The position numbers and the translations under genes were made by a program. Shown piece by piece: positions 5,193 to 63,750 of a stretch of 64,000 nt of DNA (position 1 is its first letter; each line of letters opens with the position of its first letter). The notes below the pieces were generated by a model that ran no database searches, was not told the origin of the DNA, and saw nothing but the letters and a program-made list of their open reading frames with translations. Source of the DNA: Rhizodiscina lignyota (taxonomy: Eukaryota). The stretch lies in NCBI GenBank assembly GCA_010015805.1, contig ML978122.1:2080453-2144452 (forward strand). The letters run 5' to 3'.

Positions 5193-6846
5193 CTACCAAT
5201 TTACACTCCTCGTGAATCCGGTCCATCCGTTCTCGATATCTGCGCTGCGGCGAAAAAGGACAATGGCAGACCGCAATCCGTCAAATTCGAGTGAGATATC
5301 TCGGAGCCTACACTCTTCAGGTATATCTGCCATGTGCTGCACACTGCGTGTCTCTCCTTGAGCCCACAGCCTTTTTCCCGCAAGCTCCTCTTCTATCATC
5401 ATCGCCTCCAAAGCAATGCGGCCCGCAATCACGCTGTCCCAGACGCCTTCTCGTCGTGGAAAGTTGAGCATCACGTAAATTGCCTGGATTAGACGCATAT
5501 TGCGGAGGTCGTCCATTCTCGAGCCGTTTAGAGAGACTAGGTCCATTCTTCAGTAATTCAGTGTCGCTACTGAGTTGCCGCGAGTATTGTACGATATCAT
5601 CTGGGGGTGCATCGTAAATGGTGCACGAGAGTCTGAAAATTTCTCTGAATTCGGGCTGTAGCTCATCCCAGTCCATTTCCTTGCGGTCGAACCCTATTCC
5701 TGCGATTTTCAAGAATAGCTTGATAGACACACGGTAGATGCCGAGGACTTGGAGACCTCTGATATCTTTCTTCGTCAGTGAGCTACCCTGATTATGTAGC
5801 ATTCCGGTGCAGGCTGCCTCTCCGGCGGTGAACTGGACTTGTATCGAATTCAAGTGCCGTAGAAGATTTGACGGGCCTAATCCTTGCGGAGAGTCCGGAG
5901 ACTGCATGACCAGAGTTAAGACGTAAAAGAGGTCTACGAAAAAGGCGAGCGCCGCAGGAGTAGAATCGAATGTGTTTATAGGCGCTTGCGGAACGGAAAT
6001 CTTCCTTGAATGCCAAGTCTGGAGGTTCTCCAGGCTCAAATAAAAGCGTGATTGGACATTGAGACGTTTGAAGAGTGACCGAGCAGCAGGAAATGAGATT
6101 GGAATTAAATCATCCAAGTCTTGACGTGTCGCTCGGATCGTTTCAAGTCGTTCAAGAATCTTCATGCCAGTTTCTAGATGAATCAGAGTCTGTTCTTGAT
6201 GTCCTTGTATGCTCGATAAGGAGGGGAAAAGCACACAGACCCCCATCGTAATTGCTTGATCTGCCGACTGCCCAGAACCAGACGTCATAATAATCTGTTG
6301 TATCGCTTTGTTGTATTGCTCTAATGCAAATCGCGTATTTGGATCTGCAGCATCTGCAGCAACGGCCGTCTCCTTCCCGGACCAAAACTTCTGTTGCATA
6401 GTACCAAGCGCAGCCGCAGCATGTCTTACTGCTGGGAAATTATGTGATGCTCTTAGGACGTCACAGCGCCAGAATGTGTCTGCTTCGGTAAAGTACTCCT
6501 TCGACTCCGCCGCCGTGCAAATCCGGAAATGGTAGAGACCCTTCTAGTTCATGTTGCGTCGCACTTGGTAAATCGCTCAACGGTGGTCTCAGCGAGGCAG
6601 GCGTCTCAGAGTCTGAAGACGCATTTGCGTTTGGATTGGTATATCCATCGCATTTTCGTCCCGTAGAGGTGCACTTGACACAAGCCGGCTTCGCTTCATC
6701 GCATTTAATTCTGCGAATCCTGTCGACCTTGTTAGTCTTGCCACACAATAGAAAATGATTGTGATGTCGTGCCTGCAAGTGATGCATCCAGTTCTCGTCT
6801 TGGGTGCCCAGGCACGCTGACGGGATTTGACATTGGCCTTGTCCAT
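5193..6846 (-). pseudogene. Zn2Cys6 transcription factor with two frameshifts
   Basis: KTRTGCITCR/IRRIKCDEAKPACVKCTSTGRKCDGY (split by an intron), middle region PAVRHAAAALG..ALEQYNKAI, and C-terminal PRREGVWDS motif. Frame changes occur near 6540 and near 5500-5550. Confidence 0.8.
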
Positions 6847-7296
6847 GATTTTACTTTCGCGGGCAAGACGAGGTTAGCCTTGCCCATCTCGCGCGCCATA
6901 GACATTTTAAAAAGATTAAGAGAGGAGTCACCCCAAATTGTAGAAGGCAGGTGGTAGGGGGTTTCAGCATTGGTGAAGTACGAATACGACAGGCCGCCGC
7001 TCCGGACCATCAAGAGGGCTTTTAGTAATTCCTCGGGATCTCGGTGTTACAGTTGATGTACGCATCAGAGGGAGGCAAAAGCTTTCTTAACGGAGTATAA
7101 TTGCTGGATTCTGATTGACAGCCGGATTTGGGGGCCAAATAGGCCTTGGGAGTCTGGAACGTGGTGCAGTGCAGCTCAGGGGGGGTGGCGTCGGTCTACA
7201 GCAGGCTAACCTGATTGGGATGGCGGGGGATACCGGAATATGTCCCAACTTCAAGTTTTATACCACGCAGAATGAGGTGTCTTCATACACATCAGG

Positions 7297-25751: not shown

Positions 25752-26379
25752 ATTGTTTGTGGATGCAAATGTTGTTTTGATGCGCGAGATGAATCTGGAC
25801 CTCGAGGTAACCTTTAGAGCGATATCTAGCTTGGGCCGCGGCTACTCTAACCAAAAATTGTTAAGGCGGCCTGGGCAATCGACCAATGCGGTTATCGTGC
25901 CGCCGGCGAAAATCTGGAGCTCGCTGAGATCCTCCATTTCGCGGGGGTCGACCAAGCTTTACATTCCATTAAATCGTACTCAAGTTACGCTTAAACTCAG
26001 CGCGGGAGGCTCCTTGATCAGAAGCCTCACATGGCAGATTTTCTAACGTCTTCTATCCTTGGCTCAACTACAAAGTCTTGACATTTATCAGCTACGAGCG
26101 AGCGGAGCTTACTAGTACAGACATTTCCCGGATTTGACACAGCTCATTCCCCACCATTAGAGATCCCCATGGGGTCCTTAAAGCGATATTCACCCATCTC
26201 CCAAAGTTCTATGAGATGTGTGTTCCTGGCCGACAAGTGCTATCGGTGCATTTGATGTCACACTTTACGGGCATTGCAGAGGCTCTACATACCCGTTATC
26301 CAGGCATACGTGACTTATCGCTACGGCAAGAAGAAGAACTTTGCACCGATGGCTTTTCGAATCGAACTGCCTCACACAC

Positions 26380-26553
26380 ATGCCGCATGATGGAGTGATA
26401 GTCACCTTGAAATTCGTGGTGTGAGAGGAGTGTCGGTCCATGATTACACGTGGCGAAACCAAACGGCGAAAGTGCGGCTCGGGCTTTGCCTGTCCTGCCC
26501 CATCCAGATCGTAATCATATCAGCGCATTCCCGATATGCAGAATGCCGCAAAC
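26380..26553. promoter_or_regulatory. Three GCCGCA/TGCGGC sites upstream of the aspartate kinase
   Basis: ATGCCGCA at 26380, TGCGGC at 26473 and ATGCCGCAAAC at 26543; TGATAG at 26396. Confidence 0.55.
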
Positions 26554-26738
26554 CTCGAATGGACTATGGACATGCCGCTTTCATACGGAAGAAGCACTGG
26601 GCGGCAATCTAAACCATATCGAAAGACTACAAAAAGGTAAGTACTTCTACTATTTCCTTCTTGCACTTCTTTCAGGCTATCCCCGCATTCCTTCTTCAGT
26701 TTCTCTACTTCCGAAGCTAGTTCCGAAGCTAGAACAAA

Positions 26739-28465
26739 ATGAGTCCCGCTATCCCCTGCAAGAGAGAATGGGTTGTGCAGAAGTATGGAGGCACGAGTTT
26801 GGGGAAGCTCCTCGATACCATTTGCGGTGAAATCATTCCCGCCTTTTCATACCAGTTCAACGTAGCCGTCATATGTTCCGCCATTTCCGGAAAGTCGAAG
26901 GCCTTAGGCACCACTAGCTTGCTCATTCAATGCATATCCGCCATCTCTTCATCAACAGAAGGTGCCGAAAACGAATTGAACGACACACTGGATCTTTTGA
27001 AGGACAACCATCTTAACATCATCAACTCCATTGCATCAGGGCTGAATCCAGATGCCCAGCAGATATGTCAACGGGCCGCTAACGCGATATCGAAGGAGTG
27101 CGAGCAGATGCGTGCGTTCATGCTGGCAGCACAAACTGTTGGCGAGCTTTCACCTCGTTCAAGAGATCGAATATTGGCACTTGGAGAAAGGCTTGCTTGT
27201 TCGATAGTCGCCACCACACTTCAAGTCAAGGGCGTTCCTGCGCAGCCCGTGTTTCTTGATAATCTCGTCGAAGAAACCTTCGGCCCATCGGTAGCTACCC
27301 AGCGAGACGCGTTCGAAACCCTCGGAGCAGACGTATACCCACTTTTATCACAACAAATTGCACGGAAAATCCAAGACTGCGATGGCGCTATTCCCATTAT
27401 TACAGGTTTCTTCGGCATCGTGCCGAACTCATTGATAGCTACCGTTGGCCGAGGGTACTCCGACTTCTGCGCAGCCCTCTGCGCAGTCGGCTTAGGGGCT
27501 CGCGAACTCCAGATATGGAAAGAAGTTGATGGAATCTTCACGGCAGATCCGAGGAAGATTCCGTCCGCTCGTTTATTACCGGCAGTAACATTCGAAGAAG
27601 CTGCCGAGTTGACATACTACGGTAGCGAAGTCGTTCATCCGATGGCGGTGGATCAAATACGTCACGCCGGTATTCGCTTGCAGCTGAAGAATGTATTCAA
27701 TCCTGCTGGAGCTGGCACTAGAATCTATCCAACGAGCACTCCATTGCCGTCCCCTCCAACCTCGGAAGCCCCCACTCCTCGGAGTACATCGCCTTCACGA
27801 GCTTCAGCGCCGCCTCTGGCATGCATGCTGATCGGCTATCACGGAAATCTGGAAAATCGTCGTACTCCAACAGCAGTTACTGTCAAGGACCCTATCACGG
27901 TTGTGAATGTCCTGTGCAACCAAAAGCGAAAGTCTTCCACGTTCCTTCTCAACGTTCTGGAGCAAGTAGCCAAGCACAATCTGGATATCGACCTTGTCAC
28001 CAGCAGTGAAAAGAGCGTCAGCTTTGCACTGGAGAATGTCGACGACAGGCAGCGGCTACGGAGGCTCATCACCGTGCTGGAGGACTTCGGCTGTGTCACT
28101 GTGTCCGAGGACCGAGCGATAATATCAGTGGTCGGCCACAAGATGAGGAACATGGTCGGAGTATCAAGTACGTTTGTGATTGATAACATTTCGGGACATA
28201 ACTGACCATTTCAGGCGAGATCCTCTCCGCGTTAGCAGCGGCCAAAATCAACGTTCATATGATAAGCCAAGGTGCCAGCGAAATCAATATCTCGTAAGTC
28301 ACATATTTTCCGCTTAGATTTCGACCACTAACGGGTATTCATAGTGCGGTCGTGCGCAAGGATCAAGCACTACTCGCGATGGAGGTCATTCATCAAAATG
28401 TCTTAAAGATTCCATCAAGGACCGAAGTAGAGAATAACTTCATCAAGGGTCCGTGGCTGTATTAG
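26739..28465 (+). CDS. HOM3: Aspartate kinase (HOM3 family) with divergent ACT domain, 3 exons
   Basis: WVVQKYGGTS, AVICSAIS, GERLAC, ITGFFG, VGRGYSD, IWKEVDGIFTADPRK, EEAAELTYYGSEVVHP, and after the introns INVHMISQGASEINIS. Stop is at 28463-28465. Confidence 0.93.
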
Positions 28466-29202
28466 TACCTTTGCGGTAAAGCGTCGTGAGAAAAGCGTCC
28501 TTCTGTATGATTTCATTAGCATGGCATTTGGCGCGATGGATGAGATATGTGGGAAATTTCTATTTCAGCTGCGTTACATATGCACGCAAAGTTTCGCGGT
28601 CAAAGCGCAGGTGTCGGGGAACACTTTAGAGTAGAGTCGAGCTGCTTACGCACAATTGTTGCGCGCTCTCATGTAAATTACCTTAAATATAAGGAAAATG
28701 ACCTTTGCAAAGTACGTCGCAGAGATAAATCAACTATCGTTCTCAGTGTTTGTTGATAAGAATACCGTGGATGGGAGGGAAGTGCTAGCAAAGCTCGCGA
28801 GGAAACAAGTTTTGCTGGCCAAGTCGTCAGGCTCGAGCAGCTTCCGCGAATACTCAGACTATTAGCGAGTGCTATGTGCAATTCGCGGAAGCCCGTCATT
28901 GACGCACCGCCTACTGCCCTCGAGCTCTTCTTCGGGAAACATTGAGCGGCTCTATCAACATGTGCGGATACTTGCGGGAAACTGGGTCGAAGAAATGGGC
29001 AACTCTCTTTTATTCCTAGCACACGGTTGGTGAAAATTTACCGTGATATATGGATTAGCCTTTCTAACAGGACCTTTCCTGCAGTCTAATTCTTCGTCCA
29101 TAAAGGTGATGACCTCTTGTAACTCCTTGACCCCAAATACGAAAAGCACAACACGATATGTACACAAGGTAACAGAGACAAAACTCTTTAATACAGGTTG
29201 AA

Positions 29203-30673
29203 TCATTCCTCCATTTCGCCGACCATGCTCGCCCCATTTGCGTCAATATGAAGGTCAGCATTTCCGGCTACAAGTGGCTCACCCTCGTATATCTGAGGAT
29301 GCTTGTTCTGTAAATGCTCGATCATCAATCGGTCCAAGTCCTCAAAGTCAAGCAGAAAGCCGTCGTGTCCGTTTGTCGATGAGAGCATGTGAAGTCTCGC
29401 GTCCGGTAGTGCATTGGCTAACTGTCTCTGCTCCTCTGGTGTGAAGAGAATGTCAGATTCAACGCCGACGACTAACGCGCCTGGCTCGACCGCTGAGAGA
29501 ACGGATTCGAAGTCGTCCTCAGTAGGGCATTCAGCACCATTCGAATTAGTTGCCCGGCCTCGACATATGTCGTGAGAGTCCATCTTGTTCAAAAGATGCA
29601 GATAACAGTTCGCGTCGAATCTGGAAAGGAATTTGGAGCCTTGATAACCAAGATAGCCTTGAACGGAGAAATGCGGATGTAGTTTCCGTTTATGGGAATC
29701 GGAGTTGCTGCTATTGACAGCTACGTTGCTCACTGAACTGTGAGAATGATTTGACTGCTTCGACTTCTTCGTGACTGTCTTGTTAGGTTTCCGTCCAAAT
29801 CGCGCCTCAAAGCTCGTGGATGATCGATAGGTCAACATAGCAATCATGCGAGCCGCGGCCAATCCAGAGGCAGGCTGGCTTGAAGGATGTGGCTCGTAGT
29901 GCCCGCCGCGGAAGAGAGAGTCGTTCTGTATACATTGACGTTGTGTTTCGGCCCAGGCAATTCCCCATGCGCTATGAGAGAGCGATGTAGCGATCGTAAC
30001 GAGGGTCTTAACATAGTGTGGAGGCGTGCAAAGTCCCCATTCCAGAGCCGTCATGCCTCCCATTGAGCCGCCAACGACTGCAGCTACAGACGAGACACCA
30101 AGGGCGTCAAGGACAAGCTTTTGAGCACTGGTATTTCTGTTAACGACTGACATTGTAGATTCCTTGGAAACTGATCAGGTGGCATGCTTACTTCACATCA
30201 TCTCTGGCAGTAGTTGCAGGGAAGTCAGCTCCATACGGTTTGCTTGTCGCAGGGTTGATGTTGAGAGAAGAACTGCTCCCATACGGCGATCCGAGGCAGT
30301 TTCCACAAAAGATGAAGAACCTTGTCGGGTCCAGTGTCTTGCCAGGACCGAAGAGAGGATGCCACCAGTCAACCAGGTCGCTGCTTCCCGTCAAAGCATG
30401 ACACACGACGAGGACGTTATCCCTCTTGTCATTTAACTTCCCCCATGTCTTGTACGCAATCTGGCAGTTTGAAAGTGTCTCGCCAGATTCTAGGGTGAAG
30501 GAAGGGATGACTGCGAACTTCTGGTTACGGATGAGGCGAGAGTAATGATGCTCCTGTGCGAGACTGGATTCAAGACGAGCCTCTGCATAGTCTTGCGACG
30601 TGAGACGCATCGATAATGTTCGGTTTGACAATTCTTGGACCGTGGTCAATGGAGATTGTAGGGAGGAAGACAT
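29203..30673 (-). CDS. MET2: Homoserine O-acetyltransferase (MET2/MetX family), 2 exons
   Basis: ATG MSSSLQ at 30673 (30709 is a GTG). Motifs: FTLESGETL, CHALTGSSD, CGNCLGSPYGSSS, catalytic GGSMGG, RFDANCY, ESDILF, GHDGFLL. Confidence 0.93.
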
Positions 30674-31032
30674 GTTGCTAACTTGCGTCGTCGACGATGA
30701 GAGATACACTAGGATGCAGAAGCGATGTGTTCATTTTCTGATAGTAACAACCAGTGGTTTTACCTTTATCAGTAGTCGAAGTACCAATATCGGTATCTAA
30801 TGCAGTTCAGAAACCTTGTTGAAGTTTGCGGCATGGTGCGGCACGTTTTCTACGTTCGGGCTTTGCTTTCTGACGTGCATTCGATCCTTGAACCCGCAAA
30901 ATCGAGAACGTCAACAAACAGCTTCGGCGAAGATAACGTCGCAATGCCGCATAACTCCTTATTTGGTAGCTTCTTAAGCAGCCGTAAGGGTCTAATGTCT
31001 CTGGGCTGATCAGCACGCGATAAAGAGAAATC
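30674..31032. promoter_or_regulatory. Bidirectional MET2/nitrilase promoter with two inverted ATGCCGCA sites and four HGATAR sites
   Basis: TGCGGCAT at 30827-30834 and ATGCCGCA at 30944-30951. GATA sites at 30739, 30766 (reverse), 30931 and 31018. Confidence 0.6.
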
Positions 31033-32615
31033 ATGTCTGAAGGCGCAAACGGGTTCGTGAAAGTCGCTGCTGTTCAGGCTGCACCTATCTCATTTGATTT
31101 GCCAAAGTCCCTGCAGAAGCTATCTGGACTGTCTGCAGAGGCAGCATCGAAGGGTGCTCAAATCGTTGTGTTTCCGTGAGGAGCTGTTCTCAGCCCTGAC
31201 GCAAGATCAAACGGCTGATACCCAAGTAGGGAAGGATTCCTAACAGCTTATCCATGGAGATATGCCTTTGATGCAACGATTGGTGCACGAGAGCCTCGTG
31301 GTTTGTGCAGACATTATTTTCCAAGATATTCGCATTCTGATGTACGTTCGCAGGTCGAAAGTGGTATGCACGGTATTATGAATCGGCTGTAGGCATCCCG
31401 TCGCCCGAATGCGATTTTCTCGCAGAAGTCGCAAAGAGCAATCAGATCTATTTATCAGTTGGTATCATCGAAAAGGATCAAGGGTGAGTCATGCCTTTGT
31501 CCGATTGTTCCGATGGTCCCGCCAAGCCCATGCAACGATCGTGTCAGAGTAGATCGAATGGTTCCAGAGAAATGAAATCAACAGGATATGGGTCCACATC
31601 AATAGCTTATTCCTGTAACTTTGCTAACGTGTTCTTCGTGTGCGTAGGACGCTATATTGTACAGCACTGCTGCTGGGAAAGGATGGCACTATTCTGTCTC
31701 GGCACCGTAAAGTGAGTAATCGAGAACTCTGAAATTGCGATGGAAGATTTCGCTGACTGTTGACACAGTTGATCCCAACAGCAGCAGAACGCCTTGTCTG
31801 GGGTCGTGGTGCTGGCGATGGATTGAATGTAGTGCAGACGGAACTCGGAAAGATTGGAGGATTAATTTGGTGAGTCGCACGACCAAGCCTGACCACGAAC
31901 GATGACTCTAATATGAGAACTGTAAAGCTGGGAGAATTATATGCCAGCTGCAAGATTAGCACTATATCAGCAAGGTATCGAGTAAGTGAATACGAATCAA
32001 AAGATGCAAATTGTGCGTTAATTCGGAGACCTGCAGGATATATTTAGCGCCCAATGCGGATGATCTTCCCGAGTGGACTGCTACAATGAAGCATATTGCG
32101 AAAGAGGGAAGATGCTTCGTGGTGAATGTCAATCAATTCTGCAAGGTCGGCAAGAACTTCGAATGGAGGAGAAAATCACTGACGATGTGCTCAGGTCTCG
32201 GATTTCCCCTCTGATTACCCTCCGTTTACGGAAGATCACTACGACCGTAAACCAGACGGATCTAAATGGCAGCCGGATGACATCCTAAGCCACGGTGGAT
32301 CATGTGTAGTGGGACCGTTGGGGACCTTTCTCGCGGAGCCAGTATGGGATAGAGAAGAGATCGTCTACGCAACTCTCCGATCAATGGATATAGTTGAAGC
32401 ACGAGTAAGTTGCCCATGTACATTCCAACGCAAAGACCTGCTGACCAAGTGAAAGCTCGATTTTGACCCTGTTGGAAGCTATGCACGACCCGACGTATTG
32501 TAAGTTGTCATGTTCGCTTCGAATTGGATGCGGATGCATTGGTTAACAGCGTATTAGCTCCTTGACAGTGAATACAAAGCCAGGAGTCAATGTTCGTTTC
32601 GATGGGAAGCTGTAG
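31033..32615 (+). CDS. Nitrilase (plant NIT4-like branch), 10 exons, largely missed by the ORF track
   Basis: Spliced by eye: [23 protein letters not shown] (Glu), [22 protein letters not shown] (Lys), [14 protein letters not shown] (Cys), [35 protein letters not shown]. Nine GT-AG introns. Confidence 0.92.
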
Positions 32616-33410
32616 TAGAATCGGAGTTTGAGCTGGACGATGATGCATAGACTTAAGGTACGGAGTATGGAGTATTGTAGGCGGTTAGCATACGTTGAAT
32701 ACAATATCTACAAAGCTACTCAGGCCTTGTGCATGCCTTCAAAACTTTTGCAAGTAGACATGCAGATACCATTGGTAGGGCTGGAGTAGACGAGTCTTCG
32801 CGCTGGGGAACGCCAGGACGCGTGACGCGTGCTACGGATCGCGAAATGGCGCATCTTTGTTTCCCCGATGTCCGAAGGTTCATTTTTGGTAGCGAGTGAA
32901 ACTCCAACGACCTCGGGAGTTTTTGTCCGCTCAATGAGCATATTCTCTATGCCACAGCAAGCCGAATGAAACATTCTTTCTACGCCTCGCATGGTGATCC
33001 GGATCTATCATTTCAAAGTCGTGTGGATCTTGTTGAACTTTTTCGGCTTCCTGCTACACGATTTAACCGACGCTACGCCGTTGCGTGAACAGCGCCAACC
33101 GTAGGTTGCACGCCTGTCTCAATTGTCTCTCTAGTTCTTCTCTATGTGGTCTGAATATCATCTGATTCATTTTGCCTCGTTTGATGGAGCTTAGCGGAGG
33201 GAGTGTGCAGTCCTATGGGTGAGCGATAAGGCCGCAGGGATCGTGTGATTGCGGGCCGCATTGCTTTTCTTATCGGCATCGTTGGCATCTCACTGTCGCA
33301 CGACACCTCCAGTCAATTGAGCAGCGGCCTTTTCGGCGTTCATGAGGACAGAGTCTGTCTTTATGTCGTAATTGCGCCCTTTCGTACTCAACAGGCGGAA
33401 AGTAAGCAAA

Positions 33411-36056
33411 ATGCAAACGACTAAGAGGAAGTTCGCAACTCCACCCGTGAAGTCCGCTTGTACAGCATGGTACGAACACCGCGCCCTAAGGATTACCGAC
33501 TTTAGAAGCTGACGTCCCGTCTCTTTGCAGTAGAGCATCCAGGACTCGCTGTGATGGAAAAGAAAAGTGTACACCGGTATGACTGAACTCCACAACTAAT
33601 TTCCGCTATAAATTGGCTAACACACAAGTCAATAGTGTGAGAACAAAGGCAGAGAGTGTGTTTATATTCCAAGCAGAAGAGGAGGACCAAGGATATCACG
33701 GAGAAAGAGAGCTCAATTGTTAGAGCAATCGTCGTTGACCGAGCGTACGATTTACGAAGAAGATAACGATACAACTTCGTCGCAACGAGGAGGCACTGCG
33801 CACTCGACAGATTTGTGGCCAAGTGCAGTGCATTTCTCTGAGAGTGTGCTTGCTATGGTCAATCCAGGCGCCGGCCTAACGCGACAGAACAACTCGCAAG
33901 ATTTATTTCAGGATTCCGATATGATCTTTGATAGTATATTTAATCTTCCAACTCCGCCGTCGAGCGCCCCAGAATCGAATTGTCAAGAGGATCTTCCTAA
34001 ACCGACCACGCCGGTGGTCCGAACATATGCAAATGATATAGAAATGTAAGACTCCACGACAATACGACTCTAGAATCCAAGCGGCTAACTCCTACTGCTA
34101 CAAGGTTGAACGGATACTATATCTTCATACACCAATACTTCCCAATTCTACCTCCTCCAGTATCTTCCACAACGATCGTTGACAACTCTATCGCTCGCTC
34201 TCAGGATGAGTTGGATGATGGCGATGTAACTTTTTGTCCTTCTTCGCCGCTGAGTCTGGCGATAGCTGCTATCTTAGCATTGATTCCTCACGATCAATGC
34301 CCGGAGCCTTCTAGCGAGGACGCCATCGTATTTCGGAGGCGTTACTCACACTTCCTTGTTCAATCCGCTATGGAGAGCATTGATATCGAATCTGAAATGC
34401 CCGGGTCGTCTACGTCTCCTGATAAAGCGCTTTCTGAGGACCACGCTGGATGCCCCCGTGCTCCGTTTCACCCGATGGTTCCAGTTGAGCTAGAAAGCGT
34501 AATTGCGTTGGCTTTGTTAAGCATATATGAATACTCTCAGCGGGGAAATATAGCCAGAATGCGGAATAGAGCCGGGCAGGCCCTAGTTAATGCCATGGAT
34601 TTGTGCTTGCACTCAGCCGGCGAAGAGTACGACCACTTTGAAGAAGCAAGAAGGCGAGCCTGGTGGATGACGGTGAGCATATCCCATGGCAAATGCAAAG
34701 TAATAAGTACAATATGCGCTGATTCAAGTGATGACAGTACGTGTGTGTTTGTCAAGGAAGTATCTATTCAAGCACGGTTAGTTTCATCTCACACATCGAA
34801 TATCGTAATCGGCTCCCCATCTTTCGGGCCAGAGCCACTGTTCTCTACCAGCTTTTGGTGGCTGCTACGCCGTGCCCTAACTCTACACAATATTAAACTC
34901 GCTCGAACGAAACAGTTTGCTGAGTGCAGAAGTGTACTTCTTCGCCAGTCGCTCTAAAACTTGCCTTCCGTTTAGAAAGAGTAAAACTGACTATATCTAC
35001 AGCCGCCGATAATATCCGTGCTAGACCCGTCATTTACCAGACAATATCCCTCCATTGCAGCCGATGCGGAGGCCTGGCCGTTCTTTATCGAATCACAGCA
35101 AACAATATTACGAGCGACTCAGTTCGTTGCAGATCTCAACAAGACGTTGGAAAAGGGCGAAGATCTCCAGATTATACGTACACGCATGCAGGAGCTGGAA
35201 TCTGATCTGGTGCCACTGGTCGCCAAAGCGGATGCGTTTGCCCAAGGCATTCCGAGCTTCAACCCGATCGATTCCGAGGAAGAAATCGTTGCGGAAACGT
35301 TGAAAGTGATGGCCCGAATCAAGATCAACAGGTATGTTCCGTATTCAGGTACGAATTTATTTCTAACGTCACCGAAGCGCTCGAATTAAGCTACATCGAT
35401 ATTGCGCATTTTTCGATCACCCGATCTTCAGCCGCAAGCACTGCGATCTTAAACCTGTTCCACTCCCAGGATCAGTTGGCCGAGGCCGAACAGCCTCTAT
35501 CTCCTCAATAGGATGCGGTTGCAGTGGATCCTTCGGCATGATGATCGAATCATCGCCGGGAGGCGGAATCCCCTCAAAGGACTTGCCCACGTTTTCAAAC
35601 GATGACGATGCACTTGAGCAGTTTCCTTTCAGCAGCCGAACTTCGCAGAAGATCTGCCTCAAAGCGGCTCTGAATATCGTTCAGTCGTTTGAGGCTTTGC
35701 CCTATCCGTTTGTAGTCTCAAACAAGCAAATTCCTCGTACAATGCCCTCCATGTCTTGTTGTGCGATGCAATCGAGCTATGCTCTTTTGATGTTGCGCCA
35801 GAAGACGTTGTCAGAGCAGAGGTGTTCGAATGACGTATACGTTCAGACATTGTTTGTCAAGATTCACAGGGCGCTGCAGTCCATTGCAGGGACGTTGGAC
35901 AACTACGCGATAGCTGCAGAAGCAATAGCTGGAATGCGAGGTGTGTATACTCCACAAGGTCTTGGGTTGAAGCTGTGGAAAGCGTCCGACAATGGAGAAG
36001 CTGATTCGCTTTCAGATCAAATACGAGAGTCGATACAAGTTCACTTTGGCGGTTGA
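33411..36056 (+). CDS. Zn2Cys6 transcription factor with fungal-specific TF middle domain, multi-exon
   Basis: MQTTKRKFATPPVKSACTAC/RASRTRCDGKEKCTP/CENKGRECVYIPSRRGGPR across two short introns, then YYIFIHQYFPILP, LLSIYEYSQRGN, EARRRAWWMT, ARIKLHRYCAFFD, PRTMPSMSCCAMQSSY. Confidence 0.9.
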
Positions 36057-36474
36057 AGCCGCAAGCGAGTAGAGAGGCCTTGGCTATTGGCAAGGGTGGA
36101 GGCAGAGAAGGAGCGGCATTACTGCATCGAATGCGGTGAAAGCAGTCAGTGCGAACAGTGGTGCAGCCCCTTTGAACTTGGTGCCCCTTCGAGTACACAT
36201 CTTAGGTGCTGCGAACACGTGCGCCCAACAAGCTGGCAGTCTTAACTTTGTATTATTACTGGTATTAGCGCGTTGCATGCAAGCGGCAAATAACAGCGGT
36301 ATTGGACGCGGAAATCCGTGGATTTGGTGGAAGCACTGCAAAGTACAGGAAACGCTCTGGAACTCTTGGAATCGGCGGCAGTGTTCTTCAGGATGATGGC
36401 GGCTGCCGGAGTGGGATAGCGATAGGGGAGCGAGCATGCTGGTGGCATCCAGTTTGAATTAGGTTTCCGCTCCC

Positions 36475-36754
36475 CCGCATTTGCGGCGATGTTCAGATAG
36501 AAACGATTGTAGATAAACTTGCAGCTCTTTCGCGCGAGTGGCATACTTGGACAAAATACAACGAACACCTGAGCAAGTTCAACGCCGCATCAACACAAAG
36601 CCCTTGCAAGCCGCTTTACATCTCCCCCACACATGAGAACGTCTCTTATCAGTGCCCTGTCTATTTCTTCCTGTATGTGGGATCCAATTGTATGGGATTA
36701 CGGTGTGCTAGGATCCGCCGGGATCTCTCGGTGTTTGAACTATTATCTGCGGCA
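36475..36754. promoter_or_regulatory. GCCGCA/TGCGGC and GATA site cluster upstream of the MET17 paralog
   Basis: CCGCATTTGCGG at 36475-36486, GCCGCA at 36584 and TTATCTGCGGCA at 36743-36754. Further GATA sites at 36495, 36511 and 36646. Confidence 0.55.
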
Positions 36755-36974: not shown

Positions 36975-38585
36975 ATGACTATCTCCGGTTCTCTCGCCAA
37001 TGTCACCAAGTAAGTCACCCCAATCAAAATAATAGCCTCCGCTTTCTGCTGCAATGCCAGAAGGTCCGGCCTTTCAATTTATTTAGAGCCTTTTCTAATG
37101 TGTTGAATTAGGCCCCCCGCTTTCTCCACAATCTCTCTTCATGGTGGTCAAGAGCCAGATCCTGTAAACGGATCCCGTGCTGTGCCATTGTTCCAAACAT
37201 GCGCATACAACTTCACCGACGCCGCCGATGGTGCAAGCAAGTTCGCCTGGTCGAAGGATGGATATGTATACACTCGCATGGGCAACCCAACAAATTCAGT
37301 CTTTGAGACTCGTATGGCGATGCTCGAGGGAGGCGTCGGTGCAGTTGCAACAGCTTCTGGCCATGCTGCACAATTCATGGCGCTTACCAACTGCTGCGCA
37401 CCTGGACAGAACTTTGTCAGCACAAGCTGGCTTTATGGCGGCACTTACAACCAATTCCGTGTCTACATGAAGAAGTTCAACATCAACGTCAAGTGGGTTG
37501 TGGGCAATGACCCAGCCGACATTGACCAGACGATCGACGAGAACACACGATGCGTTTACATCGAGACGATTTCAAATCCGAAGCACAGCGTCCCAGATAT
37601 CACTGCGATCGCCGAAGTTTGCCATAAGCACGGGATACCTCTCATCGTCGATAACACTTTCGGAATGGGCGGTTATATTGCAAGGCCGATCCAGCTTGGT
37701 GCCGATATCGTCACACACTCTTGCACGAAGTGGATTGGTGGCCATGGTACTAGTATGGGTGGTATTGTCATCGACGGTGGCCACTTTGACTGGTCTGCTT
37801 CTGGAAAGTTCCCAGAATTCACAGAGCCGGCGGAAGGCTACCACGGCATGCGCTTCTGGGAAACATATGGCACTCGCGCTCTCTCAGCGAAGCTCAGGAT
37901 GGACTCTATGCGCGACCTTGGTCCGTGTATGAGTCCTTTCAACGCCTGGCTCTTCCTTCAAGGTCTTGAGACATTGTCGCTTCGAGGCAAGCGGCATTGC
38001 GAGACTACTCTGCAACTTGCAGAGTGGCTCGAGGCTCACCCGTCGGTCAATTGGGTTCTGTATCCAGGTCTGAAGTCCCATCCAGACTATGCACACGCAC
38101 AGAAGACGATGCCGAATGGACAAGGTGGTGTGTTGACATTCGGTGTGGTAAGTCCAATTCATTCGATCCCTTAGAGAGGGTCGCTCTGACAAAATCTTGT
38201 ACAGGCCGGCAGCATCGAGCAAGTTCGCGCAGTTGTCGATAACCTCAAGCTTTGCAGCCATCTCGCCAACGTCGGTGACGCGAAGACGCTCATCATCCAT
38301 CCTTGGGTGACAACACACCAACAGCTCCCAGATGAGGAAAAGATCAAGGGCGGTGTAACACCAGACCTTATCCGCATTAGCGTAGGATTGGAAGAGTTTG
38401 AAGACATTCAGCATGACTTTGAACAAGCCTTTGAAGCCGCTGGCCTACCAGTTGCGGACAAGACAAAGCAAGACCCATTCCAGGCGGCTATGAACTTGGT
38501 TGCGGGTGGCTTCATGAAGAACAAGGCGACCGGCGCACCAAGACCAGGGACTGACGGGACTGTGGTTGAGAATGGGGCGCATTAA
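36975..38585 (+). CDS. MET17: O-acetylhomoserine sulfhydrylase-like PLP enzyme (MET17/CysD paralog), 3 exons
   Basis: [54 protein letters not shown]-lysine motif [44 protein letters not shown]. Confidence 0.92.
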
Positions 38586-61890: not shown

Positions 61891-63750
61891 TCATAGACAA
61901 TATCTCGGCTGGTGGATGTCGTCCGCTGCTCTAACTAGCACTATCGCGTTCTCCACGAATTGGCCAACTACCTCTTCGTATAAGTTCGGTTGCTGCAACA
62001 CGCACTTCTGTCCTTCTGCAACGATCGTGTGGCCGTCCACCTCGACTTCGACCTCGTGCTGCACAGTCGGTGGTCCATCCACATCGGTGGTCGTAACCTT
62101 TGTGAGGTCGATCTGCGTTGCTTGATGGGTGTAGCTCAACCTGTCCTTCTCTCTGGCAGAGTTGTCCCTCTGCGAACGTGGGGACATGGTCAAGTTGATG
62201 TAGTCGTTAATCTCGCCTGGAAACTCAATTTCCAAGTTCACACTAATGCGGAGGTCGAGGTCGTTGTCCGGACGTAGAATGTCGATGTCGGCGACGCGAG
62301 CCTTGACGATTTTGGCGGTGATTTGGTTGGTCTTGGAATCCGTTGTGATCCGCATCTTCCGCTTATGGTTGGGATTGATGACTTGACGTGCCATTTGAGG
62401 AAGCTGGAGGTATCCAGTTTGGTTGAGCTCGTAGAACGCATCAGTCTCTCTGGGATGCTTGTACGTGATAGGTACACGACCTTTCCCCATCGATAGTCGT
62501 GTGGCCTCGTTCAGATACTGGTTCAGGCGCTGGTACTGTTGCGGAGTGACGCCTGACTCAAAGCGAACATCGTGAACGTTCGGTCTCAGGACGGCCTCGG
62601 TTTGAATACCAAGGTCAAGACGTTCGCCAGTCATCTTGTTGATGATTTTGCCCAGCTTTGCCTCGATTTCCCAATGTGCGATCGCAGGTGGTGGAGCCCC
62701 AGTTGGTGTTTGCGCGATGGATGGATCACCACCCGCGACTACATATTGCTGGAGGAAAGTCATGACAGCTCTCCTTGTTTCGTAGAATGCGGAGATGGCG
62801 GCTATGTTTGGCTCTGGCATGCCGTGTGCTTGCATGCCATGTGGCTGTTGGACATGCGGCTGCTGGACATGCGGCTGCTGGACATGCGGCTGTTGGACAT
62901 GCGGCTGCTGGACTTGGGACTGCGGGGGGTTTGGCTGTTCGCTGCGTTCCGGACCTCGAGCTGGCGTGGCCTCTCTGGACGATGGTCGCTGACTGTGTCC
63001 GTTCACTAGAGACTTGGAAGGGCCGTGAAATCGTCGCGAACCCACAGGTTGTCTTTGTGCCCATTTTGGAACCTCGAGATACTTTCTCTTCTTCCTAGCA
63101 GGCTGTTCTGTGACTGAAGGTGCACTTCCGGGTTCTCTTTTAATGGTAGGTGTGGGTGTTCCGTCAGGTGTTGCGGACATTTTTTCAACAGCGCCATGAT
63201 TCTGCATATCAGAACTAGCGTTGGTTGATACCGACGGTCTTTCAGGACGGATCTGTGTCTCGCCATCGAATGCAGCGTCAGCTTTACGCTTCTGACTTGT
63301 CCTGCTATCCGTGCTTTGTGCGTCGCGATCAGCAGGCGGTGCTGCCATGCTGGGGCGTGAATTAAATTCGGGTGCAGGAGGAGGGGCAGGTGTGCTGCTT
63401 TTGCGGATCGCTCGATCGCTAGGCGAGGAGAGACCCGCGGATGGCGGTGCTTGCGGATTCAAGATGTCGCGCTGGAAGTCGGGAGAAGAGTGCGCCGTAG
63501 TTGGTGTTTGACTTTGCATGATGTCTCGTTGGATTTCTGGTGATGTCCGGAGGAGAGGGGGTGGGTGGCTTTGGAGTATGCTTCGTTGCGATTCTGGAGA
63601 GAGGTCGCCAATGGAGGAGTATGCTCTTACAGGTTGCATGCGAGGAGGTGGATGAGCAAACTGGTCTGCGCTTATTGACATGCTGCGGCCTGTTGGTGCA
63701 GGCGCTTTGTTGGCGCTGCCATCGGTATTGAGTATATTCCGAAGGTCCAT
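61891..63750 (-). CDS. CET1: mRNA capping enzyme beta subunit (RNA 5'-triphosphatase, CYTH fold)
   Basis: MDLRNILN start, PKWAQ guanylyltransferase-binding motif, WEIEAKLG, RFESG, DLRISVNLE, REKDRLSYTH, IDLTKV, HEVEVE. Confidence 0.92.
   Translation of the reverse strand: MDLRNILNTDGSANKAPAPTGRSMSISADQFAHPPPRMQPVRAYSSIGDLSPESQRSILQSHPPPLLRTSPEIQRDIMQSQTPTTAHSSPDFQRDILNPQAPPSAGLSSPSDRAIRKSSTPAPPPAPEFNSRPSMAAPPADRDAQSTDSRTSQKRKADAAFDGETQIRPERPSVSTNASSDMQNHGAVEKMSATPDGTPTPTIKREPGSAPSVTEQPARKKRKYLEVPKWAQRQPVGSRRFHGPSKSLVNGHSQRPSSREATPARGPERSEQPNPPQSQVQQPHVQQPHVQQPHVQQPHVQQPHGMQAHGMPEPNIAAISAFYETRRAVMTFLQQYVVAGGDPSIAQTPTGAPPPAIAHWEIEAKLGKIINKMTGERLDLGIQTEAVLRPNVHDVRFESGVTPQQYQRLNQYLNEATRLSMGKGRVPITYKHPRETDAFYELNQTGYLQLPQMARQVINPNHKRKMRITTDSKTNQITAKIVKARVADIDILRPDNDLDLRISVNLEIEFPGEINDYINLTMSPRSQRDNSAREKDRLSYTHQATQIDLTKVTTTDVDGPPTVQHEVEVEVDGHTIVAEGQKCVLQQPNLYEEVVGQFVENAIVLVRAADDIHQPRYCL
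62839..62913. repeat. 15-bp coding tandem repeat (QQPHV) inside CET1
   Basis: gacatgcggctgYtg x4 plus a partial copy, encoding QQPHV x4 then QQPH. Confidence 0.9.

Follow-up and report, generated by a model that had tools for sequence, protein, structure and literature searches.

The locus considered here, a stretch of 64,000 nucleotides of the Rhizodiscina lignyota genome (assembly GCA_010015805.1, contig ML978122.1, positions 2,080,453 to 2,144,452 of the forward strand; referred to below as the window), raises the question of which promoter word is recognized by the Zn2Cys6 transcription factor (TF) of a gene cluster that also encodes an aspartate kinase (AK), a homoserine O-acetyltransferase (MET2), a NIT4-like nitrilase and an O-acetylhomoserine sulfhydrylase (OAHS), and what these genes may accomplish together. 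An earlier note on this DNA had proposed the hexamer GCCGCA (TGCGGC on the other strand), which recurs in the cluster promoters, as the binding site of the factor. The word that is conserved, however, is the nine-letter CGGNNTTTG, which is missing from that note. As judged from the promoter sequences, the primary site of the factor is very probably the asymmetric 9-mer CGG[G/T/C][A/C/G]TTTG rather than GCCGCA. GCCGCA itself is quite likely to be functional in this lineage, as a lineage-restricted co-element.

The conserved site in orthologous promoters

A metagenome scan with the TF alignment yielded 66 loci, five of which carry the cluster; four of these are independent after removal of duplicates (L087, 99.99% identical to L041, was dropped). 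The 13 promoters of the four clusters, taken without the window, amount to 8,310 bp and can be aligned neither with each other nor with the promoters of the window. When about 240,000 words, contiguous or spaced, are ranked in this set, CGGNNTTTG comes out on top, with 22 occurrences versus 1.49 expected (log10p −17.8); it is present in ten of the 13 regions and in all four clusters, and it ranks first or second in every leave-one-cluster-out run. Because the promoters are unalignable, the word has survived their turnover. Its inner positions are G/T/C and then A/C/G, and the seed CGGGCTTTG, which was first seen in the window, was then found four times in the orthologous promoters versus 0.06 expected. 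The window contains eight CGGNNTTTG, four of which are placed one per cluster promoter (at 26480, 30857, 32622 and 36729; 4 versus 0.37 expected), and none lies upstream of the SDR gene in the window.

The hexamer behaves differently. GCCGCA occurs five times in the 8,310 bp of orthologous promoters, versus 3.85–4.8 expected, and ranks approximately 14,000th, so that it stands at background level; the earlier note had named such a lack of conservation as one of the outcomes that would refute its proposal. Even in L038, the nearest clade for which DNA is available (97/82 support), the four promoters contain ten CGGNNTTTG and two GCCGCA. GATAAG is also enriched, with 20 occurrences versus 3.45 in the orthologous promoters and four versus 1.27 in those of the window. 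The spaced word CGG-N7-CGG, the AOD2/AOD5-type element, is found twice in the window promoters (30829 and 36719) and lies outside the top 15 words in the orthologues.

The same word accompanies the factor at loci without the cluster. After removal of near-duplicates and short contigs from the 66 loci, 25 unclustered TF loci with approximately 770 bp or more of upstream DNA were retained; these are partly non-independent, and distances were taken from the tblastn match rather than from the start codon. Upstream of the factor, CGGNNTTTG occurs 23 times versus 3.5 expected, at 14 of the 25 loci and often in pairs, and in the remainder of these loci its rate is 0.125 per kb, which is the background level. 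GCCGCA in the same upstream regions is below expectation (9 versus 16.9). The autoregulation suggested in the earlier note is thus supported for the family by the site upstream at 14 of 25 loci and is weak in this genome. At six loci, all from one clade, the gene immediately upstream of the factor encodes a cyanide hydratase (in L068 the match is to PDB entry 9ofa, E = 1.7e-146), and all six hydratase promoters next to the TF carry CGGCGTTTG near −170 to −205; together they hold 16 CGGNNTTTG sites versus 0.73 expected in 6 kb, compared with two GCCGCA versus 3.5. At both kinds of locus GCCGCA fails to follow the factor whose own site it was thought to be.

Three observations were made beside these counts. 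In one hydratase-linked factor (L053:5431–5850) the recognition segment is altered, reading RSVRVKC for RASRTRC, and the altered segment together with the variant CGGCGTTTG of that clade may represent co-variation of protein and site. Four CGGKVTTTG immediately precede a bZIP gene (PF00170) that adjoins a TF orthologue (L062:6456–7439); this bZIP protein is possibly a second-tier regulator in that lineage. A direct CGGNNTTTG pair lies upstream of an MFS transporter gene two genes away from the TF (L036:228–250), which makes this gene a candidate target.

The Zn2Cys6 factor

The cluster TF is single-copy in the genome and belongs to a family that includes Aspergillus nidulans AN0094. Its six zinc-cluster Cys residues are spread over three exons, and its recognition segment, RASRTRCDG, is identical to that of orthologues whose promoters lack GCCGCA. 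Neighbouring CGGNNTTTG sites are arranged head-to-head, tail-to-tail or as direct repeats, 9–44 bp apart. A coiled-coil dimerization helix after the zinc cluster is common, although not universal, in Gal4-type factors; in the AlphaFold model of the orthologue P0122, no long helix follows the zinc cluster, residues 51–151 being a low-confidence region with pLDDT below 50 in which a helix may have escaped the model. The free orientation of the sites and the lack of an ordered helix in the model fit a factor that binds as a monomer, which we regard as somewhat the better supported mode.

Single-CGG sites with an extension are used by pathway-specific Zn2Cys6 regulators of the AlcR and Rgt1 type. 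The present system resembles these in its CGG with a fixed extension, in its several sites of free orientation per promoter, in the self-regulation suggested for the family and in the location of the regulator within the cluster. It differs in that the AN0094 family is uncharacterized and in that the proposed regulon extends to unlinked core genes. In the available text of PMC6106085, AN0094 appears in a gene list only.

The database models that are near-identical to the TF and nitrilase of the window (P0121 and P0328) are incomplete: that of the TF lacks the zinc cluster (exons 33411–34046), and that of the nitrilase has 252 amino acids versus approximately 323 in orthologues.

Enrichment of GCCGCA in the cluster promoters

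All 11 GCCGCA/TGCGGC sites listed in the earlier note were recovered at the positions given there, together with a twelfth, at 30837 on the reverse strand, which was absent from that list. They are distributed as three in the 989 bp of the AK promoter, three in 359 bp between MET2 and the nitrilase, two in 795 bp upstream of the TF and four in 919 bp upstream of the OAHS (MET17) gene; one of the last four (36058) lies 2 nt past the TF stop codon, in the 3′ untranslated region of the TF. The four promoters (3,062 bp) hold 12 sites, whereas 1,000 dinucleotide shuffles gave a mean of 2.09 and never more than 6, and versus 1.77 expected at the genome non-coding rate (p = 4e-7), this rate of 0.579 per kb having been obtained from 207 kb of non-coding DNA masked from 60 stretches of 10 kb. 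When four non-coding stretches were drawn at random 2,000 times, a comparison that allows for a word picked post hoc, no set contained a common hexamer as extreme as GCCGCA, the pool being small (62 stretches of at least 989 bp) and the coding mask crude. The hexamer is thus enriched over random promoters of this genome, which the earlier note had left to a proper test. Over the entire window there is no enrichment (45 sites versus a shuffle mean of 36.2, with nine of 100 shuffles reaching 45), and its count is inflated by four GCCGCA with a 15-bp period at 62855–62905 that arise from a coding QQPHV repeat.

Measured against a Markov model of the window promoters, GCCGCA remains the top word with a weaker score (log10p −5.1), which clears the correction for hexamers only and misses the threshold of −6.7 for the wider word space. 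This, the lack of conservation in the four orthologous clusters and the fact that among many screened clusters some are bound to show such a word are what would be expected if the enrichment were a chance or mutational by-product and CGGNNTTTG alone mattered. We consider this improbable, since no random set was as extreme and since GCCGCA is independently repeated, in tandem and adjacent to CGGNNTTTG-type sites, at two genes that had been chosen in advance, as described below.

Other features of the hexamer carry less information. The 11-mer that the earlier note found common to two promoters is present, as is a second shared 11-mer, which occurs 14 times genome-wide and contains the conserved site; because approximately 1.6 shared 11-mers are expected by arithmetic among four such promoters, these were set aside as evidence. 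The 845-bp SDR promoter does lack GCCGCA, but approximately 0.5 sites are expected there, so that this absence does not inform on the boundary of the cluster. The right boundary is instead indicated by a comparison of the 66 related loci, none of which has a counterpart of the SDR; an AK–SDR fused model in Xylaria (P0086) was rejected, as it contains a different SDR (17% identity over 63 amino acids). A palindromic reading, RTGCSGCAY, fits six of the 12 sites, is not conserved and suggests no nameable factor, and a reading of GCCGCA as a degenerate CGGNNTTTG was dropped because its flanks fit barely above background.

HOM2, HOM6 and the composite element

HOM2 and HOM6 were examined because the two reactions that lead from aspartyl phosphate to homoserine are not encoded in the cluster; both genes are unlinked and single-copy, and both were chosen beforehand by pathway logic. 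The HOM6 promoter contains CGGGATTTG at −113 and GCCGCA at −136 and −128, and the HOM2 promoter contains CGGTCTTTG at −198 and GCCGCA at −170 and −162, so that each has one CGGKVTTTG and two GCCGCA with an 8-bp period within approximately 30 bp. In 1 kb of promoter DNA of the two genes taken together this amounts to two CGGKVTTTG versus 0.05 expected and four GCCGCA versus 0.58 (p = 0.003). The promoters of the housekeeping copies of HOM3, MET17 and MET2 contain no CGGNNTTTG, have one, zero and zero GCCGCA, and lack the composite. Taking the nine-letter sites of the cluster and HOM promoters as anchors, five of six have GCCGCA within 40 bp, versus nine of 74 in the background (Fisher p = 4.5e-4) and none of the 22 anchors in the orthologues. 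The interpretation of the earlier note is thus supported in part. The co-regulation of the cluster that it had deduced is well supported, and GCCGCA recurs at unlinked HOM2 and HOM6, outside the set in which it was first noticed; as a site of the TF, GCCGCA is not conserved.

In the HOM2 promoter (L162), TGACTCA is found at −38, beside the composite. We take it to be a CpcA/Gcn4-type site, and its position suggests that the new element was added onto ordinary amino-acid control.

Two ways in which GCCGCA might act have to be weighed. In the first, which we hold as a tentative alternative, TGCGGC in this species would be bound by the cluster factor as well, as auxiliary CGG sites that surround one strong CGGKVTTTG anchor and take the place of the paired sites of other fungi. 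The eight TGCGGC found no more than 40 bp from an anchor all lie on the CGG strand of that anchor, paired CGGBVTTTG is nearly absent from the genome (none tail-to-tail and two head-to-head, neither at a regulon gene), and in the TF promoter two GCCGCA stand in the place of the paired anchors of orthologues. However, the RASRTRCDG segment is unchanged from orthologues without GCCGCA, a G at −1 is seen in only two of 22 conserved sites, the flanks of GCCGCA match TTTG barely above background, and the background also leans towards the same strand (7 versus 2), the eight sites being drawn from five composites.

In the second, which is compatible with the favoured reading and which we rate a little short of evenly balanced, GCCGCA is the half-site of a separate, wider-acting candidate factor that would co-activate the regulon in this lineage, such as a C2H2 protein of the kind of Stp1/Stp2, whose element in yeast is RCGGCNNNRCGGC according to the available text of PMC2626603. 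The HOM2 and HOM6 tandems match this element exactly (2 versus 0.01 expected), the AK site includes CGGCTC, which the accessible part of PMC5486834 gives as an Stp1 site that was tested, and tandem GCCGCA with an 8-bp period is in excess genome-wide (9 versus 1.8), tandems with an 8- or 10-bp period being found near unrelated genes and mostly without an anchor. On the other side, the cluster promoters have half-sites only, with the 8-bp tandem in none of the four; RCGGC occurs 22 times versus 30.5 in the orthologues; local duplication can produce an excess of tandems; and Stp1 and Stp2 are C2H2 factors of yeast permease genes. Anchorless tandems were seen near genes for HPP, MFS, glutathione S-transferase, CutC and luciferase-like monooxygenase proteins (L215, L222, L223, L224 and L230), which possibly form a wider regulon of such a second factor.

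One of the two head-to-head pairs in the genome lies, together with a third CGGNNTTTG, between hexokinase-like and Zn2Cys6-like genes (L316:1501–2042; C8:606809). Within the window, CGGGATTTG is also present at 6821–6829, at the 5′ end of another Zn2Cys6-like gene (approximately 5193–6900, reverse strand).

Features of the cluster

The coordinates of the cluster genes and promoter elements are collected in Table 1. The AK exon has 99% identity to a database protein from Rhizodiscina lignyota. The AK, MET2 and OAHS genes each have a separate housekeeping copy in the genome: that of AK, on C12, is 43% identical to the cluster paralogue, that of MET2 is on C4, and that of MET17, on C8, is 54–59% identical to the cluster OAHS. 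The HALTG motif of the cluster MET2/MetX is taken by us as a homoserine signature.

Table 1. Genes and promoter elements of the cluster (window coordinates)
Feature	Position	Strand	Basis or remarks
Aspartate kinase (AK), cluster paralogue	26739..28465	+	Pfam AA_kinase and ACT; TIGR00657 over cut-off
Conserved site CGGGCTTTG	26480..26488	+	259 bp upstream of AK start; TGCGGC at 26473 immediately before
Three GCCGCA, AK promoter	26382..26550	26382 +, 26473 −, 26545 +	GATAAG at 26314
Homoserine O-acetyltransferase (MET2/MetX) paralogue	29203..30673	−	NCBIfam MetX best hits per exon; HALTG and GGSMGG motifs
Composite element, divergent MET2/nitrilase promoter	30827..30865	+	TGCGGC at 30827 and 30837 (10-bp period), then CGGGCTTTG at 30857
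Additional GCCGCA, MET2/nitrilase promoter	30946		
NIT4-like nitrilase, intron-rich	31033..32615	+	CN_hydrolase; orthologue P0241 nearest to plant NIT4, PDB 6i00, E = 1e-86
Degenerate CGGAGTTTG, doubtful site	32622..32630	+	7 nt past nitrilase stop; 789 bp upstream of TF
TF proximal promoter	33225..33274	.	GATAAG 33225; GCCGCA 33231 and 33255; CTTATC 33269
Zn2Cys6 transcription factor (TF)	33411..36056	+	Exon translations, homologues; PF00172 and PF04082 in orthologue P0122
Distal GCCGCA sites, TF–OAHS gap	36058..36589	36058 +, 36482 −, 36584 +	
Composite element, OAHS promoter	36719..36753	+	CGG 36719; CGGTGTTTG at 36729 (246 bp upstream of start); TGCGGC 36748
O-Acetylhomoserine sulfhydrylase (OAHS; MET17/MetY family) paralogue	36975..38585	+	Family assignment; PLP-lysine motif

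Proposed regulon and cyanide route

By homology, the supply of O-acetylhomoserine, an O-acetylhomoserine sulfhydrylase and a NIT4-type nitrilase are all present. In the reading that we favour, the factor would activate the clustered AK, MET2, OAHS and nitrilase genes and, in this species, the unlinked HOM2 and HOM6 as well, and, probably together with a GATA factor, would raise the flux from aspartate to O-acetylhomoserine. The OAHS would then most likely exchange acetate for cyanide to give 2-amino-4-cyanobutyrate, which the NIT4-like nitrilase would hydrolyse to glutamate (or glutamine) and ammonia, and the outcome would be detoxification combined with the assimilation of nitrogen, in a fungus that lacks cyanide hydratase. 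In place of the two or more CGGNNTTTG found in orthologues, this species carries a single one with TGCGGC nearby, which would be read by a second factor or, slightly less probably, by the same one in the form of weaker CGG sites. Cyanide is a likely substrate and inducer in view of the type of the nitrilase, the linkage of the hydratase to the same site, the lack of a hydratase in this genome (none was found; among the best candidates scored, the best match is 46% identical and has a CWEHFQP-type active site) and the bacterial precedent for the OAHS reaction, and the co-regulation of HOM2 and HOM6 points to a homoserine route rather than to the serine route of plants. Taken as a whole, the favoured reading, namely a CGGNNTTTG-bound factor, a regulon of AK, MET2, OAHS, nitrilase, HOM2 and HOM6, and cyanide assimilation, is moderately probable.

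Several points weigh against it. The conservation test is based on only four orthologous clusters, with promoter limits set by eye, and the relaxed CGGNNTTTG pattern was derived from the same promoters, although it passes the Bonferroni correction by eleven orders of magnitude. The word is missing from three of the 13 orthologous regions (L041 AK, L041 TF and L043 TF) and from the upstream regions of 11 of the 25 unclustered TF loci, and the six hydratase loci are one clade with alignable promoters and count as approximately one independent event. In this genome the TF promoter has one degenerate, doubtful site (32622), with GCCGCA at −180 and −156; CGGKVTTTG is absent from the AOX promoter and from three other nitrilase promoters; and the composite, in its two orders, occurs 22 times genome-wide versus 11 in the control and 16 versus 19, barely above control, with matches mostly in coding DNA, and neither the composite nor paired sites pointed to a clear additional target. 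None of the 80 prokaryotic loci of the nearest nitrilases that were examined (the best 80 of at least 599) has AK, MetX, OAHS, HOM2 or HOM6 within 6 kb. Finally, MET17-family enzymes accept many nucleophiles, so that another substrate is possible.

In a further alternative, the regulon is for the synthesis or breakdown of another γ-substituted amino acid or a secondary metabolite, as with FUB3/FUB5/FUB7, or for the supply of methionine, the hydratase linkage being incidental. The same three enzymes are found in the fusaric acid cluster, which has FUB3, FUB5, FUB7 and two C6 factors (PMC6738028, available text), the closest solved structures to the cluster OAHS are yeast Met17 and Fub7, and the hydratase linkage is confined to one clade. 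We nevertheless judge this alternative unlikely. In the window, the interval from AK to OAHS contains no gene for a polyketide synthase, a nonribosomal peptide synthetase (NRPS)-like enzyme or a transporter, a nitrilase is present in all four orthologous loci, the housekeeping Met genes are separate and without the site, and the hydratase promoters share the word itself and not mere adjacency. The likeness to the FUB cluster extends to a duplicated AK, a homoserine acetyltransferase, an O-acetylhomoserine lyase and a C6 factor, whereas the present cluster contains a nitrilase and is without the polyketide synthase, NRPS-like enzyme, dehydrogenases and transporter.

Related clusters in other fungi

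Homologues of the cluster genes are found in Colletotrichum, Xylariales, Talaromyces, Paecilomyces and several Dothideomycetes. Accession numbers that almost follow one another connect AK, TF and/or nitrilase in Microthyrium, Talaromyces stipitatus, Paecilomyces variotii, Pycnora, Colletotrichum noveboracense and Sporothrix, and fused gene models in other fungi join TF with OAHS, nitrilase with TF, and AK with aspartate-semialdehyde dehydrogenase. The last is seen in the Fusarium duplospermum model P0100, in which the AK is of the cluster type, so that HOM2 is physically in the cluster there. In the TF tree the factors of the window and of Microthyrium form a group with the cluster TFs from Talaromyces and Paecilomyces (97/82), a grouping from which horizontal transfer of the cluster is a possible reading; Paecilomyces has a second TF copy, placed among the Eurotiales. 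In L038 (2186–3300), AK shares a divergent promoter with four CGGNNTTTG with a transporter-like gene, which by eye presumably resembles Gpr1/Fun34/YaaH acetate or ammonia transporters; acetate and ammonia are by-products of the proposed pathway.

Relation to known cyanide routes

A bacterial O-acetylhomoserine sulfhydrylase reported to form γ-cyano-α-aminobutyrate is cited in the reference list of PMC8191291 (Omura, 2003), and in the available part of PMC13257105 the γ-cyano-α-aminobutyrate synthase route is tabulated for bacteria only. The proposed fungal route shares with it a MetY/MET17-family enzyme and a supply of O-acetylhomoserine, and differs in being fungal and in that the predicted enzyme is encoded in a cluster together with AK, MET2, a regulator and a NIT4-like nitrilase. 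With the β-cyanoalanine synthase and NIT4 of plants it shares the trapping of cyanide on an activated amino acid and the hydrolysis of the nitrile by a NIT4-type enzyme; the proposed fungal route is one carbon longer, starting from homoserine and not from serine or cysteine, and its product would be glutamate. Fungal NIT4 homologues have been proposed to act on plant-made β-cyanoalanine (PMC7503981), the accessible text of which makes no mention of a biosynthetic cluster around them.

For fungal cyanide tolerance, the available text of PMC8120277 describes one conserved mechanism, KCN-induced cyanide hydration, and names no regulator or site; nor is a regulator named in the accessible parts of PMC9324006, PMC7033362 and PMC4551469. 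In one clade the hydratase shares the TF family and the promoter word with the present system, whereas in this genome the hydratase gene was not found. Among the papers listed in the literature searches, which covered main texts and few of the subscription journals, we found no description of the cluster, the factor or the site CGGNNTTTG, and no regulator or promoter element for fungal cyanide tolerance.

Conclusions

In conclusion, the promoter comparisons point to CGGNNTTTG as the word of an AN0094-like factor. A wider proposal, on which we are evenly divided, is that the AN0094-like family is a cyanide-response regulator of filamentous ascomycetes that drives, through CGGNNTTTG, the hydratase in some lineages and the clustered homoserine route in many others, and that HOM2 and HOM6 have been captured in this hydratase-less species by the new GCCGCA composite. 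With an orthologue in the laboratory model A. nidulans, a 9-bp site and a short list of targets, this candidate regulator is directly testable. If the proposal is true, fungi would possess a second, assimilatory route for cyanide, the first step of which is on record for bacteria only, and the GCCGCA composite would be a concise example of how regulation is rewired: the regulator of a cluster has brought unlinked housekeeping genes under its control so that they supply its pathway.

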